DNA of 20,000 nucleotides from an uncultured virus (IMG/VR IMGVR_UViG_3300032213_002933) (lineage: Duplodnaviria > Heunggongvirae > Uroviricota > Caudoviricetes). The position numbers were made by a program, and so were the translations under genes. Of the stretch, positions 15,474 to 20,000 are shown in pieces. Location: the IMG/VR virus record IMGVR_UViG_3300032213_002933. The stretch is one strand, 5' to 3'. The notes under the pieces were generated by a model. That model made no database searches and was not told the DNA's origin. It saw only the letters and a program-made list of their open reading frames with translations. Within the stretch, counting starts at the first letter, position 1, and each line of letters opens with the position of its first letter.

Positions 15474-15515
15474 TACTTAACGGCATTTTTTTTTCAAACT
15501 CGCCGGTATAAAAAC

Positions 15516-15560
15516 AAAAGAGACGCTTCCTGCCTAATGAGCAGAGAGCGTCTCTTTTTT
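15516..15560. terminator. Bidirectional intrinsic terminator between convergent genes
   Basis: AAAAGAGACGCT-TC-CTGC-ctaatga-GCAG-AG-AGCGTCTCTTTTTT, with A-run before and T-run after. Confidence 0.85.
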
Positions 15561-15574
15561 CGTTTGGTTAACGA

Positions 15575-15793
15575 TCAGTAGTCGTAACCCGATTCCCAAC
15601 CTATTTCATCATAGGATTCATTTGAAGATGAAAAGGCCATTTCGAAGTCAGTTCCTTCGAGGCTCGTATGGGCCATGCCACCGAAGGGGTTGACCCACTG
15701 GAAGCAGTCTGGACATCTCATGTTGGAACCAAGGAGTTCCTCAGCGACGATAAATTCTGATGCACAGTGTGGACACTCTATAAATGAATTCAT
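15575..15793 (-). CDS. Small Zn-ribbon protein (MJ0042-like spacing) with acidic tail, 72 aa
   Basis: IECPHCASEFIVAEELLGSNMRCPDC; AAAGGA RBS upstream. Confidence 0.75.
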   Translation of the reverse strand: MNSFIECPHCASEFIVAEELLGSNMRCPDCFQWVNPFGGMAHTSLEGTDFEMAFSSSNESYDEIGWESGYDY

Positions 15794-15862
15794 TTTTTAT
15801 CCTTTGATGTGTTAAGCATTAGCTGGTATGGGTTGATGTGACCCTTGTGGATCACGTCATTG

Positions 15863-15892
15863 ACTATATCCATTGCGGGCGGGTTGATGCAA
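15863..15892 (-). promoter_or_regulatory. Possible sigma70-type promoter for the 72-aa Zn-ribbon gene
   Basis: Minus strand TTGCAT-18 nt-TATAGT about 70 nt upstream of the start. Confidence 0.4.
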
Positions 15893-15899
15893 CTCGTAG

Positions 15900-16206
15900 A
15901 TAGTTATTTTAGAAAAAAAATTTCTTACGGGCGATTCTGTATAGGAAAAAATTTTGGACTGAAATGGATGAAAGGTGTTGCGAGTTTTTCTAAACTCGAG
16001 GGGCAAACGTTTCTAAACTCGAGGGGGTATAAACGTATATAGAATCTATATAAGAGAAAATATAGAAAAAAATTATAGGGGAAATATATAACCTTATATA
16101 GGTTTAATATATGGTAAAAATTAAGGAAAATTTATAGGGGGGAGATAGTGAGTATATATGTATACTTAAGACTTTTAACATGCCCACCCGGGTATGGGGT
16201 CTTAGG
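15900..16206. other. Non-coding A-tract/palindrome region; candidate genome terminus, packaging site or origin
   Basis: Repeated A4-8-TT tracts, direct repeat TTTCTAAACTCGAGGGG (15987-16003, 16010-16026), inverted repeat TATATAGA-A-TCTATATA (16036-16052), hairpin 16165-16206. Lies at a divergent strand switch. Confidence 0.45.
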
Positions 16207-16295
16207 TTGTCATACTCCGTCAGCGGAATGACGCTAAATACAACGGGGAGACTACGCGTGCCTTAAACAGCGTATTATGGTTCCTAGGAGGGATC
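16206..16295 (+). ncRNA. Structured leader element, copy A
   Basis: Near-identical to 16717-16800. Hairpins CGTCA/TGACG and TACGC/GCGTA, with flanking GTTGT/ACAAC pairing. Confidence 0.5.
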
Positions 16296-16643
16296 ATGTT
16301 CCAATTAATTAAAATGCTCTTAAGCGTCCTTACGCAGGAGCAAAAAGAAGGTATTTATGCAAGTCCAGTACTGCTGGCTGCTATAGAGGCAGTTCATGCA
16401 GTAGATGCTTCACCGGAAACATACACCAGTTTTTGGTGGGAAGCTACCTACTATGGCTCACCCTTGCAAGGTATGGCTCTATTAAAGGATGCTGCGTTCA
16501 TCTACTCTGTAGAGCAAGCCTTGGGTGCAGAGCAGGTTGCTATCTGGAATGCCTGTAACAGAGGTTCCATTTGGCAGTTCGTTGGTGTGCAGCAGCATAC
16601 CGTGGTGGGGGATACTCTCCGTCCGGTGTTCACACTGAAGTAA
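16296..16643 (+). CDS. Hypothetical protein, 115 aa (cassette 1)
   Basis: AGGAGG RBS; followed by a terminator hairpin. Confidence 0.85.
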   Translation: MFQLIKMLLSVLTQEQKEGIYASPVLLAAIEAVHAVDASPETYTSFWWEATYYGSPLQGMALLKDAAFIYSVEQALGAEQVAIWNACNRGSIWQFVGVQQHTVVGDTLRPVFTLK

Positions 16644-16659
16644 GCAGTAAGTAGAAGGT

Positions 16660-16715
16660 GTGTTTCCCTTGGGGTCTTCGGATCCTGAGGGAAACACCTT
16701 TTTTGAGGATAGACC
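16660..16715 (+). repeat. Cassette-boundary element 1: terminator hairpin + TTTTTTGAGGATAGACC
   Basis: GTGTTTCCCTTGGGGTC-TTCG-GATCCTGAGGGAAACAC followed by the conserved motif at 16699-16715. Confidence 0.9.
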
Positions 16716-16716
16716 A

Positions 16717-16800
16717 TTGTCCTTCGTCAGCGGTATGACGTTAAATACAACGGGGAGATACGCGAGCCTTAAAGTGCGTATAACATTCCTAGGAGGAATC
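16717..16800 (+). ncRNA. Structured leader element, copy B
   Basis: TTGTCCTTCGTCAGCGGTATGACGTTAAATACAACGGGGAGATACGCGAGCCTTAAAGTGCGTATAACATTCCTAGGAGG, a duplicate of copy A. Confidence 0.5.
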
Positions 16801-17031
16801 ATGAATGCAATTAACTTTATCAAGCAGTATAAGTACGCAATATTGGTGGGCTTGTTGGTGTTCGCACCTACTAGCGCTCTGATATTTGGATTGTTCGGAT
16901 TCATTTCCGGATTCTTGAATTGGGGTCTTCTGATCCTGGTTGCTCTTACCTTTGCAGGTTTGCAAGGATATGACTCTTTCAGGAACTGGATGAGTAATAA
17001 TGATGAAGAAGAGTACGACTTCTTCAACTAA
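16801..17031 (+). CDS. Small membrane protein, 76 aa (cassette 2)
   Basis: AGGAGG RBS before ATG 16801; long hydrophobic stretch and acidic tail DEEEYDFFN. The track start 16660 lies inside the terminator. Confidence 0.85.
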   Translation: MNAINFIKQYKYAILVGLLVFAPTSALIFGLFGFISGFLNWGLLILVALTFAGLQGYDSFRNWMSNNDEEEYDFFN

Positions 17032-17083
17032 TCCATTTAATTAATACAATGGGGTGATGGTCCACCTCTTTAATGAAGAAGGT

Positions 17084-17149
17084 TGTTTCCTCTGGGGCTT
17101 TTGCCTTGGAGGAAACACCTTTTTTGAGTATAGGCCAAAGGGTCTATCC
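17084..17149 (+). repeat. Cassette-boundary element 2
   Basis: TGTTTCCTCTGGGGC-TTTT-GCCTTGGAGGAAACA, motif TTTTTTGAGTATAGGCC (17120-17136), then AAAG-GGTCTAT hairpin. Confidence 0.9.
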
Positions 17150-17172
17150 ATATCTCTAGAAAGGGGATTCTC

Positions 17173-17835
17173 ATGGTTAAGAAAGTATTGCGTTGGACTC
17201 CTGTTACTTGTGTTATATTGTTCATTCTCATGTTTGTGGGAATGACACAGGCACAGTGTGTTACGGAAGGGGCATACAGCTACTGTGACAGTACCTTATG
17301 GGTAGCTAATAGTAGCAGCTTCGGCATCGCTGACATCATGGCCTTGTTTGGTCATGTTAGTGTCATGCACTTGCTGTGTAATGGAGCTGCTCTATTATTG
17401 TTTGCGGTACCAGCAGAACTAATCTTGGGAAAGAAGAAGTTCATTGCTAGTCTTGTTCTAGTAATGATGGCCCAGGTTATCATTGGTGAGTTAACTCGCA
17501 CCAACGGATTGGGTGCCAGTGGATGGCTTTTTGCTACGCCGGGACTCATGCTCGGAGCTTCCATGTGGAAGATCTGGGAAGAGGGTGAAGAAGTAGGCTT
17601 TATGTCGTGGCCTACATTCTTGTTTGCTGCATCCGTGGGTATGGTTGCTATGGATGTAGCAGCTGTCGGTGATGCCGATGGCGTTGGCCACCTAGCCCAT
17701 ATCTCTGGGTTTCTTAGTGGTCTAGTGTTTGTTATTGCGGGACTTCCGTTCCTTGCAATGACAATTCGGGATGGTTTTCGTGCCTGGAAGAGAGAGCGTG
17801 CATGGCGCAAGAAGCGTTCACTTATGGCAGCATAG
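17173..17835 (+). CDS. Rhomboid-family intramembrane serine protease, 220 aa (cassette 3)
   Basis: FGHVSVMHLLCN (HxxxxHxxxN), ELILGKKKF, GLGASG (catalytic Ser in GxSG), VGHLAHISGFLSG (catalytic His in AHxxGxxxG); multiple transmembrane segments. Confidence 0.88.
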   Translation: MVKKVLRWTPVTCVILFILMFVGMTQAQCVTEGAYSYCDSTLWVANSSSFGIADIMALFGHVSVMHLLCNGAALLLFAVPAELILGKKKFIASLVLVMMAQVIIGELTRTNGLGASGWLFATPGLMLGASMWKIWEEGEEVGFMSWPTFLFAASVGMVAMDVAAVGDADGVGHLAHISGFLSGLVFVIAGLPFLAMTIRDGFRAWKRERAWRKKRSLMAA

Positions 17836-17843
17836 CACAGGTT

Positions 17844-17907
17844 GTTTCCCCTGGGGTCTTCGGACTCTGGGGGAAACTTCTTTTTTGAGGATAGACCCAT
17901 GGTCTGT
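17844..17907 (+). repeat. Cassette-boundary element 3
   Basis: GTTTCCCCTGGGGTC-TTCG-GACTCTGGGGGAAAC, motif at 17881-17897, then CAT-GGTCTGT hairpin. Confidence 0.9.
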
Positions 17908-17964
17908 ACTTGGGTGTGTGTTGTAGCCCTGTCAATCCTGACTAAAGCAACAAAGGAGGCCATC

Positions 17965-18159
17965 GTGCCTAATTATCAGAGAAGAAGGCGTACTCTTGGT
18001 GCGCTTATTATATTTGCATTTATGCTTACTGTGATGCGCTGGCAAGGATACTACGGGTTAATGCCTGTAGCTCCTTGGATATGGTCCATTGCAATCTCAT
18101 TTATTGCAACTCTAGTTGTGTTGCGCATGTGGGTTTTAATTAACCGTTACATGTGGTAA
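17965..18159 (+). CDS. Small two-TM membrane protein, 64 aa (cassette 4)
   Basis: AAGGAGG RBS then GTG 17965: MPNYQRRRRTLGALIIFAFML...WIWSIAISFIATLVVLRMW. Confidence 0.8.
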   Translation: MPNYQRRRRTLGALIIFAFMLTVMRWQGYYGLMPVAPWIWSIAISFIATLVVLRMWVLINRYMW

Positions 18160-18178
18160 TAAATTTATTAATTGAGTT

Positions 18179-18252
18179 TTTCCCCGGGGATTGGCAGAGA
18201 TGCTGGTCCTCGGGGAAACTTCTTTTTTGAGGATAGACCAAAGGGTTTATCC
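18179..18252 (+). repeat. Cassette-boundary element 4
   Basis: TTTCCCCGGGGATTGGCA-GAGA-TGCTGGTCCTCGGGGAAA, motif at 18223-18239, then GGATAGACC-AAAG-GGTTTATCC hairpin. Confidence 0.9.
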
Positions 18253-18279
18253 ACGATACCTCGGAAAGGAGGTGAAAAC

Positions 18280-18510
18280 ATGGAACTTCAAGACCGTGAA
18301 GTCTGTTGTTATGTCTGCGGACGGGCAACAGATCACTGGGCTGAGCACGACGACTTGGTCGGGCTCGGCCTAGCAATCTACACGGATGCTGGTGTCGAAT
18401 GGACCGATTTTGGTCGATTCGTCAAGAACCGGCACCCAGAGATGGCAAGCAGGGTTGATGCCTTGCTCGCTGATCTAATTAACATCCGTATTAGCTTCGA
18501 CAGGAGCTGA
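18280..18510 (+). CDS. Small putative Zn-binding protein, 76 aa (cassette 5)
   Basis: AAGGAGGTGA RBS before ATG 18280; CCYVCGRATDHWAEH. Confidence 0.85.
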   Translation: MELQDREVCCYVCGRATDHWAEHDDLVGLGLAIYTDAGVEWTDFGRFVKNRHPEMASRVDALLADLINIRISFDRS

Positions 18511-18522
18511 TATGGTAACGCT

Positions 18523-18588
18523 GTTTCCCCTGGGGTCTTCGGGCCCTGGGGGAAACTTCTTTTTTGAGTATAGGCCGTTGGTCTACTC
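18523..18588 (+). repeat. Cassette-boundary element 5
   Basis: GTTTCCCCTGGGGTC-TTCG-GGCCCTGGGGGAAAC, motif TTTTTTGAGTATAGGCC (18560-18576), then GTT-GGTCTACTC hairpin. Confidence 0.9.
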
Positions 18589-18609
18589 TAATCCTGAAAG
18601 GGGATTGTA

Positions 18610-18828
18610 ATGAGAAAGAAATATTCAACAAACTGGGATACAGTTTTGTATCCCAAATTAAATACTGATCTGGGACATTTCAATGTCTTAGACTGGGAAA
18701 TGGACAAAATTGCATGCGTGTCGTGCACTGCTGTCCTTGTATCCCAAGGAAGCGAAATCTGCCACTCATTCATAGGGAAAGATCTTATTTGCCCTATCTG
18801 TGAGTTGGTTATTGACGACGCACAGTAA
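18610..18828 (+). CDS. Small Zn-finger protein, 72 aa (cassette 6)
   Basis: GAAAGGGG RBS; CVSC...CPIC. Confidence 0.75.
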   Translation: MRKKYSTNWDTVLYPKLNTDLGHFNVLDWEMDKIACVSCTAVLVSQGSEICHSFIGKDLICPICELVIDDAQ

Positions 18829-18841
18829 ACAAGCAGGGTGT

Positions 18842-18920
18842 GGCCTCGGGGAATTTGCCCCGGGGCCTTGTGCCTAAACTTTATTTTTTGACGATAGACC
18901 TCGGAACTAACGAAGAGGTT
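18842..18920 (+). repeat. Cassette-boundary element 6 (divergent hairpin)
   Basis: GGCCTCGGGG-AATTTG-CCCCGGGGCC, then AAACTTTATTTTTTGACGATAGACC (18877-18900), then GACCTC...GAGGTT hairpin. Confidence 0.8.
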
Positions 18921-18932
18921 GGAAAGGTTGTC

Positions 18933-19133
18933 ATGAGTAAGAATTTGAAGAAATCAAGGCGTCGGTGGCAGTCTGCCGGATATTGCCGGTGCGATGAATG
19001 TGACCAGCATAAGTATGACTGTGTTACATCATATCACCCAACATGGGTGATCCTTTGCCCAGAATGCTGGGAATGGATTTACATCCATGACCGACAGGGA
19101 GACAGAAGGCAGGATCGCCTCCCTGGCTTTTAG
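18933..19133 (+). CDS. Small Zn-finger protein, 66 aa (cassette 7)
   Basis: GAAAGG RBS before ATG 18933; CRCDEC...LCPECW. Confidence 0.8.
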   Translation: MSKNLKKSRRRWQSAGYCRCDECDQHKYDCVTSYHPTWVILCPECWEWIYIHDRQGDRRQDRLPGF

Positions 19134-19151
19134 AGTTAGGGAGTTATTAAC

Positions 19152-19251
19152 AGGCCTCAGGTCTGGTGCTCGAAAGAGTGCTAGGCCTGGGGTCTTTTTT
19201 ATTATCAAAGTTTATTTTTTGAGGATAGACCCCTGAACAACCGAAGGGGTC
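19152..19251 (+). repeat. Cassette-boundary element 7 (terminator and motif separated)
   Basis: AGGCCTCAGGTCTGGTGCTC-GAAA-GAGTGCTAGGCCTGGGGTCT-TTTTT, then AAAGTTTATTTTTTGAGGATAGACC (19207-19231), then GACCCCT...AGGGGTC hairpin. Confidence 0.88.
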
Positions 19252-19263
19252 AGAAAGGTAGTC

Positions 19264-20000
19264 ATGAAAGTTTCAACCACCACCAGTAACCGTCCAAAGG
19301 AGGACGCCATGAAGCAATCAACCAATACCGGTAAAGTTTATGCCGGTTCAGGCTCACGTAGCCTCAAGCTAGATGCGGAAATGTTCACTCGGGTGTTTAA
19401 TCGCCTAATTGAAATGATTCGCGAAACCAAGCCAGCCATGCTTATCACGGGTATGGCTGAAGGTTTTGACGAAGCTCTGGCATTGGCAGCCATGGCTACG
19501 CAAACGCCATTGAAGGCCATGATCCCATTCAAGGGATACTGTAACCATTACTGGGGTAAGAATTCTGTCACCGGTAAGAATCGCCTGGATGAGTGCAGGC
19601 AGATAGTTGCCTATGCCCAGTCTACGGGAGGGGTGGAATACATTTGCTCCGACTGGAGAGGTCCTGATGGCCGTTATGCAATGTTCCACCGTAATGAGGC
19701 GATGGCCAATGCCTGTGATAAGGCATGGATCTGGGATCCCAGCAGTAAGGGCACTGCTCAGTTCTATAACTATTGCGTGGCTAACAAAATCCCGCATTAC
19801 ATCATCAAATTCAACGATGGGGAAGGCCCTGGGGATACACCTCAGACGCCAACCCCAGAAGGTCCAAAGGAGGACAAAGCAATGAAGAAATACCTAGTTA
19901 AGTACACAGACGGCACTGAAGAGGTGATCGTCACGGACAAGGGAATCCTTGGATTAACCCAAGACCTCAAAGATGCAGGAAAGGGTTGTTCTATCAAAAC
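19264..20000 (+). CDS. SLOG superfamily (YspA/DUF1273-like) protein with further C-terminal domain; runs off window (cassette 8)
   Basis: Manual translation is open to the end: VYAGSGSRS...LITGMAEGFDEALALAA...AMIPF...MFHRNEAMANACD...SKGTAQ, matching the YspA-type G.R, SGMAxGxD, RNxxM and GT motifs. Alternative start 19309. Not in the ORF track. Confidence 0.8.
   Translation, partial: MKVSTTTSNRPKEDAMKQSTNTGKVYAGSGSRSLKLDAEMFTRVFNRLIEMIRETKPAMLITGMAEGFDEALALAAMATQTPLKAMIPFKGYCNHYWGKNSVTGKNRLDECRQIVAYAQSTGGVEYICSDWRGPDGRYAMFHRNEAMANACDKAWIWDPSSKGTAQFYNYCVANKIPHYIIKFNDGEGPGDTPQTPTPEGPKEDKAMKKYLVKYTDGTEEVIVTDKGILGLTQDLKDAGKGCSIK

Follow-up and report, generated by a model that had tools for sequence, protein, structure and literature searches.

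A repeated 5' leader on recombining one-gene cassettes of a large uncultured freshwater phage

Described leaders and mobile cassettes

Hairpins that occlude the Shine-Dalgarno sequence or the start codon control translation, and the mRNAs of small membrane toxins such as tisB carry ribosome-standby leaders. Among phages, RegA and gene 43 of T4 exemplify translational operators. In the pistol ribozyme, a pseudoknot arises when the hairpin loop base-pairs with a strand further along the RNA. Mobile regulatory cassettes are represented by the promoter-early stem-loops (PeSLs) of T4-type phages, small terminator/start-signal repeats that flank small genes of unknown function (PMC2839356, PMC4122927).

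The leader described here lies within a 20,000-nucleotide window, the whole stretch of DNA that was analysed. The window is phage DNA, with a large terminase at 3-1361 on the minus strand, and it also encodes a ClpB-like AAA ATPase, RecA and a rhomboid-family protein, while the majority of the remaining open reading frames (ORFs) have no Pfam or PHROG family. The closest cultured large terminase, from a Moorella phage, shares 37% identity, with others at 30% or less, and related virus records reach 193-194 kb at approximately 92% estimated completeness. The source is a large uncultured freshwater phage of about 195 kb.

As in PeSLs, a stem-loop terminator is joined directly to a start signal between small genes, and relatives gain, lose or replace genes exactly at the cassette repeats. 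Unlike PeSLs, the joints in the window are without a sigma-70-like promoter, the phage is not T4-type, with its nearest cultured large terminase at 37% (the Moorella phage), and the conserved box is the 5' arm of a covarying hairpin on the sense strand. Some cassettes here carry an extra structured leader of 80-150 nt, which is not known to be a feature of PeSLs. The layout of this leader recalls that of tisB-like mRNAs, with a long structured 5' UTR, a hairpin over the Shine-Dalgarno sequence and AUG, and an upstream single-stranded, purine-rich stretch, and the downstream genes are likewise mainly small membrane proteins; tisB has in addition an antisense RNA, a processing step and toxicity, and the likeness is in layout alone. 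As with the RegA and gene 43 operators, an RNA element at the ribosome site is common to several early genes, but there is no sequence likeness, the leader is much longer, and no regA-like gene was found.

Cassette row and leader copies

From about position 16150, the + strand consists of one-gene cassettes in a row, each ordered as a terminator hairpin (15-20 bp, G+C-rich), a T-run, a GAGKATAG box, a leader, a ribosome site and a small gene. Over the two strands of 15500-20000, 14 terminator-like hairpins were counted, while shuffled sequence gives an expectation of 3.7. No sigma-70-like promoter was found at the boxes or joints; three such sites occur in 4.5 kb (7.0 expected), none of them at a joint. 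The features of the row, all on the + strand, are as follows.

16150..16167, +: first-cassette hairpin GAGTATA-TATG-TATACTT, counterpart of the box hairpin, upstream of copy A
16203..16295, +: leader copy A, without the GAGGATAG box (given as 16207-16295 in the original prediction)
16218..16233, +: P1 of copy A, CGTCA-GCGGAA-TGACG, pairs invariant
16234..16252, +: linker of copy A, near-invariant, with Shine-Dalgarno-like GGGGAG, unpaired in box-containing folds
16253..16274, +: P2 of copy A, TACGC...GCGTA closing the loop CCTTAAA
16277..16297, +: P3 of copy A, whose 3' arm contains half of the Shine-Dalgarno sequence and extends as far as the AU of the start codon
16296..16643, +: gene A, 115 aa, without a family match
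16660..16704, +: terminator hairpin of 17 pairs with a T-run, closing cassette A
16705..16724, +: box GAGGATAG and hairpin H5, GAGGATAG-ACCA-TTGTCCTT, at the 5' terminus of leader B
16725..16740, +: P1 of copy B
16741..16758, +: linker of copy B, TTAAATACAACGGGGAGA
16759..16780, +: P2 of copy B, TACGCG...TGCGTA
16785..16799, +: P3 of copy B, the ribosome-site hairpin, ATTCCT-AGG-AGGAAT
16801..17031, +: gene B, 76 aa, encoding a membrane protein with two helices from the 'NW[GP]' superfamily
17084..19270, +: further short-leader cassettes
17084-17117, 17844-17877, 18179-18218, 18523-18556 and 19152-19195, +: terminators of the further cassettes
17126, 17887, 18229, 18566, 18890 and 19221, +: box starts of the further cassettes
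16705-16724, 17126-17150, 17887-17905, 18229-18252, 18566-18585, 18890-18920 and 19221-19251, +: box hairpins in the window (such hairpins also occur at L048-L059)

Upstream of the row is an AT-rich region containing a 17-nt direct repeat, TTTCTAAACTCGAGGGG, at 15987-16003 and 16010-16026. It is followed at 16037-16138, over about 100 nt, by five WTATAGR motifs on the + strand (23 window-wide, 15.5 expected), two of which read TTATAGGGG and loosely resemble the box core. The region 15987-16138 may act as promoter or operator for the entire cassette row.

Both leader copies were found in the window letters and by MAFFT alignment where the original prediction had placed them (16207-16295 and 16717-16800). 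They are identical at 67 of 78 core positions (85.9%) and share the block CGTCAGCGG through the ATG, and a repeat search of the window recovered from them a 37-nt stretch at 92% identity (family D10). A covariance model built from three copies of the leader gave two strong matches in the 20-kb window, namely copies A and B (E 3e-29 and 6e-27). A third match (E 0.03), at 17029-17119 in the gene-B 3' UTR, is probably chance. Each copy terminates in AGGAGG-N4-ATG, the start of a different ORF. Copy A joins first-cassette sequence at 16202/16203, a joint also visible in a relative's contig, in L149 and in G001, and this copy has lost the box. An ESM Atlas look-up with gene B found no named relatives.

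The weak third match falls at an extra hairpin between the gene-B stop codon and the terminator (17050-17072, GGGGTG-ATGGTC-CACCTC), which is also present in L001 at 1848-1866. At the same place in L139 (minus strand, approximately 385-410), a different sequence is likewise paired. Two small reading frames in the leader were considered and set aside. One starts at an ATG in the 3' arm of P1; it has no ribosome site, and a 1-nt indel shifts its frame in copy B. The other, GUG-CCU-UAA, begins 7 nt after GGAG in the A-type leader (16248-16268), and copy B has GAG in place of GUG.

The leader is strongly conserved, more so than the genes that follow it. Between the window and L139, the leader of gene A is 97.4% identical and the coding sequence 77.5%, with differences at 44 of 116 third codon positions. 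For gene B, the corresponding values are 100% and 85.7% against L149, and 92.3% and 81.1% against G001. Identity extends about 18 nt into gene A. The pattern fits strong constraint, although recent spread or gene conversion of the module could look alike. A functionless hitch-hiker, cassette DNA recently spread along with its recombination joints, would be in keeping with the invariance of P1 and P2, the narrow lineage range and the mosaic copies, such as the G001 leader, a mixture of A-type and B-type states. We consider this explanation unlikely, since the leader shows 2 differences in 78 nt against approximately 38% at neighbouring synonymous sites, and a long leader of one kind or another stands before every gene-B-family homolog seen.

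Among the matches listed, this leader type is known from seven places: the two window copies, one virus record and four metagenome loci. A 16-mer core retrieved 5 loci from viral contigs, 1 of them true, and at least 119 from metagenome contigs, of which 4 of those listed are true (L149, L139, L211 and L217). A gapped pattern joining the 5' end to the ribosome site retrieved 0 loci, and one joining core and loop retrieved 9, with 1 true. There were 0 leader matches in 185,579 species genomes, no leader match by blastn against cultured phages, and no gene-A homologs in viral contigs. A gene-B-family profile returned 7 loci, all previously recovered except L267, itself unrelated. The cassette motif occurs at 33 loci on 22 viral contigs, some of them false, and cassettes were listed from 20-kb pieces of ten related records.

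The places where the leader is found trace a mosaic of cassettes. In G001, the leader type is present once, solely ahead of the gene-B homolog, and the L149 leader equals leader B at 76 of 76 positions. In L139 and L211, the leader precedes gene-A homologs, with a different, longer leader in front of the gene-B homolog of L139; the leader locus of L217 is cut off. Another gene replaces cassette A in L149, in G001 and in a relative's 9.9-kb contig. This contig comes from one RNA-library run, carries no start, end or strand information and is possibly DNA carry-over. Compared with the window, whole cassettes are replaced in it, the joints being 16202/16637, 17136/17842, 17898/18165 and more. The original prediction of one leader ahead of two unrelated genes thus holds in that the genes are different, but not in the sense of independent recruitment, as the leader rides on recombining cassettes that are swapped among relatives. 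To judge from the joints, the duplication is cassette shuffling of the PeSL kind, in which recombination at repeated cassette joints would place one leader before both gene A and gene B.

Within the same row, the rhomboid-family membrane protein (Pfam PF01694, E 1e-13) occupies its own cassette at 17173-17835 and is conserved in G001.

Box hairpin and the longer leaders of relatives

In 37 distinct cassettes, the GAGKATAG box forms the 5' arm of a hairpin that follows the terminator T-run. The inner pairs of this hairpin vary by cassette, for instance TAGGAG/CTCCTA, TAGGGG/CCCCTA and TAGACC/GGTCTA. The sense strand folds better than the antisense strand in 33 of the 37 cassettes (mean -9.4 versus -6.5 kcal/mol), 28 of 37 box hairpins beat their shuffles at z<-1.64, and 39 of the 312 pairs are G.U. 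The stability of the sense strand together with the G.U pairs therefore points to a hairpin in RNA, or in the non-template strand, rather than in duplex DNA. Transcripts may start at the hairpin's first G (GAGGAUAG) or be cut there, or the hairpin may be part of a single-stranded DNA promoter. The presence of a box hairpin after every terminator bears on how transcripts start or are processed.

The same observations weigh on a DNA-level explanation, in which the inverted repeats of the leader would serve a DNA-binding regulator as operators or belong to a promoter specific to the phage. Both P1 and P2 form perfect or near-perfect palindromes situated just 3' of a conserved promoter-like box, and a standard promoter was not found. 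However, H5, P3 and the P2 of the longer leaders contain G.U pairs that form on the sense strand only, and the leader is fused to a ribosome site, which makes a purely DNA-level role quite unlikely.

The window leader is one member of a wider leader family whose lengths range over 100-170 nt. In relatives, longer leaders of approximately 138-166 nt span the distance from box to ATG (L248, L249, L250, L252, L253, L256, L258, L259, L139 and L127). The 11 distinct longer leaders have their first 20 or so and last 20 or so nucleotides in common with the window leader, comprising a 5' start, GAGGATAGRYCATTGTCCTT, and a ribosome-site module, TTYCTWGGAGGRATCATG. As judged from the alignments, the shared 5' end is the box hairpin, and the shared 3' end is a hairpin that contains the Shine-Dalgarno sequence and AUG. 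A global alignment of the window leader with the longer ones is convincing at both ends, whereas the middle 55 nt are not, so the window leader is best described as a short variant with its own middle. The window-leader model matches the longer leaders weakly (E 0.01-0.5), through P1 and P3. Seven longer-leader loci gave 0 matches to Rfam at E<=1.

Eleven distinct 3' modules were aligned for a covariation test. In the longer-leader hairpin GTTCAG-TACGTTAAG-CTGAAC, three pairs are changed on both sides (8 cells), with several G.U variants and an invariant loop, and its score was reached by 1 of 500 shuffles; a small hairpin preceding it shows one-sided changes alone. The 9-nt loop UACGUUAAG is invariant in 11 of 11 longer leaders and is complementary to an upstream AACGUA. 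A pseudoknot between AACGUA and UACGUU was considered and rejected: the strands are invariant, and the 3-nt linker looks too short. TTAAR motifs recur in the loops of the longer leaders, in UACGUUAAG and also in GCGUUAAAG. The longer-leader hairpin is a better-supported candidate RNA motif than that of the window, and the evidence for an RNA fold is good in the longer leaders and the box hairpin, not in the P1 and P2 stems proposed earlier.

The common ribosome-site module is followed by 17 distinct proteins. Ten are of the two-helix membrane-protein superfamily that includes gene B, two are gene A, two are Cys-rich proteins of 101-102 aa, two are unrelated larger proteins, and one is a 45-aa ORF that is probably spurious. 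Altogether, the leader family stands ahead of at least five unrelated gene families, with several copies per genome. With its covarying hairpin and invariant loop, the wider family is a candidate new cis-regulatory RNA of an abundant group of uncultured freshwater phages.

Predicted fold and possible roles of the window leader

Four hairpins, H5, P1, P2 and P3, make up the RNAalifold consensus of six sequences and also the minimum-free-energy fold of the three box-containing copies. In the consensus, P1 is CGUCA/UGACG, P2 is UACGC(G)/(U)GCGUA and P3 is UUCCU-AGG-AGGRAU, which copy A extends as far as the AU of the start codon. Between P1 and P2 runs an 18-19-nt linker, UUAAAUACAACGGGGAGA(C), that is predicted to be unpaired and is almost invariant. 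Paired cells account for 96.1% of the four-hairpin fold, against 34-57% with the partners slid. P3 has two one-sided changes that keep pairing (G.U to A-U and U.G to U-A), and H5 has a single double change, G-C to U-A, in G001. The covariation sought in P1 and P2 is absent: 5 of 5 P1 pairs and 5 of 6 P2 pairs are invariant in a small, shallow sample of six sequences. The invariant pairs therefore neither support nor contradict the predicted fold.

Differences between the copies had been said to spare the stems. They do so for CGTCA/TGACG and TACGC/GCGTA, but TTGT/ACAA is broken in G001 (TTAT), and variable columns are not depleted in the four helices (4 of 36 paired versus 7 of 42 unpaired, Fisher p 0.53). 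The proposed upstream pairing of GGGGAG is compatible with all six sequences as CUYC/GGAG, yet it competes with H5. In copy A, which is without the 5' arm of H5, an ACUCC-GGGGAG pairing is predicted instead, so the window copies need not fold alike at their 5' side. Relative to dinucleotide shuffles, the folding energy with the box is not exceptional (z -0.46, -0.70 and -1.15); without the box, copy A reaches z -2.58, and the other two copies -0.68 and -0.32.

No Rfam family matched the window at gathering score, in line with the candidate new motif of the original prediction. At E<=10 with permissive filters, the region 16100-16900 gave one chance match of 12.6 bits to an unrelated family. 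The leader resembles the pistol ribozyme in having a hairpin of 5 bp and a 6-nt loop, after which comes an A/U-rich linker. This likeness had been noted from the start, but a covariance-model match to pistol is absent both at gathering score and at E<=10, and neither copy has a GCGGWA complement downstream, in agreement with the earlier observation that the loop-complementary pseudoknot strand is lacking. A pistol-like self-cleaving ribozyme is favoured solely by the likeness of the first hairpin plus UUAAAUA, and an exonuclease-blocking RNA by the consideration that a structured 5' end could slow 5' exonucleases. With Rfam families, ribozymes included, unmatched at E<=10 apart from the chance match, and no strand complementary to the P1 loop within the leader, we regard either activity as highly improbable. 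Among the activities first suggested (cis-regulatory, nuclease-blocking or catalytic), the cis-regulatory one is borne out by the leader position and by conservation exceeding that of the genes, while the catalytic one finds no ribozyme match. A cis-regulatory RNA is the best reading because the leader is non-chance, lies on the transcribed strand, is absent from Rfam and is more conserved than the genes.

We therefore lean, with slightly more confidence than doubt, towards the copies being one type of cassette-borne, modular, cis-acting 5' UTR that controls the translation or stability of early-gene mRNAs. If the whole element is transcribed and P3 forms, it would sequester the Shine-Dalgarno 3' half together with the spacer and sometimes the AUG, and ribosome entry would be lowered or delayed. 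The upstream part, perhaps together with a factor bound there or a ribosome on standby at the GGGGAG strand, would set how often P3 opens, and H5 may shield the 5' end. The ribosome site has a predicted mean unpaired probability of 0.32 in 10 leader mRNAs and 0.50 in 23 short-leader cassettes (Mann-Whitney p 0.005), an indicative comparison as the sequences are related rather than independent. In copy B, P3 has just 6 bp, and the prediction leaves the AUG 65% open. Should the leader control translation, the phage cassettes would carry post-transcriptional control besides start and stop signals, and any gene entering a cassette would inherit the same timing.

The conserved linker could instead serve a trans-acting factor, with an RNA-binding protein of phage or host, or a small RNA, binding UUAAAUACAACGGGGAGA and/or the TTAAR loops to switch translation of a small early-gene regulon. 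Consistent with such an operator, the 18-nt linker is almost invariant and predicted to be unpaired between two hairpins, the TTAAR loop motifs recur in the longer leaders, and several copies per genome precede at least five unrelated gene families. A candidate binding protein was not found, most proteins of this phage being without a family, and conservation alone does not separate an operator from the cis-only model; we hold the operator to be doubtful, and more improbable than probable.

In a small-molecule riboswitch, P1, the linker and P2 would form the aptamer and P3 the expression platform. The layout, a conserved core followed by a Shine-Dalgarno hairpin, fits in general terms, and with no Rfam match the class would be new. 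P3 is predicted in all copies but is weak in B. Against this stand the absence of covarying stems in the six sequences, a downstream set of small proteins from at least five unrelated families without known function and with no metabolic theme, a core interchangeable with structurally different longer leaders ahead of the same gene family, and a very narrow distribution (0 matches in the 185,579 species genomes). A riboswitch is accordingly very unlikely.

A broader and decidedly tentative proposal is that the leader and its longer relatives constitute an undescribed class of phage regulatory RNA, a plug-in sensor module on recombining cassettes. Its invariant strand, UUAAAUACAACGGGGAGA here and the UACGUUAAG loop in the longer forms, might bind a phage factor, a standby ribosome or a ligand, thereby timing the translation of small membrane proteins and other cassette genes.

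The short-leader cassettes of the row offered two further observations. An ORF at 19264-19998, which runs past the window end, belongs to PHROG 289 and has a GTP-binding domain; in L049 and L051 it continues, behind a short-leader cassette, as a protein of at least 1149-1470 aa, reaching the ends of the 20-kb pieces. In the short leaders (17140-17175, 18575-18612 and others), the ribosome site AAAGGGGAU lies in a small predicted hairpin, such as AAUCC-UGAAAG-GGAUU. Since short leaders show such hairpins too, placing the Shine-Dalgarno sequence in a hairpin seems to be a general habit of the cassette system.
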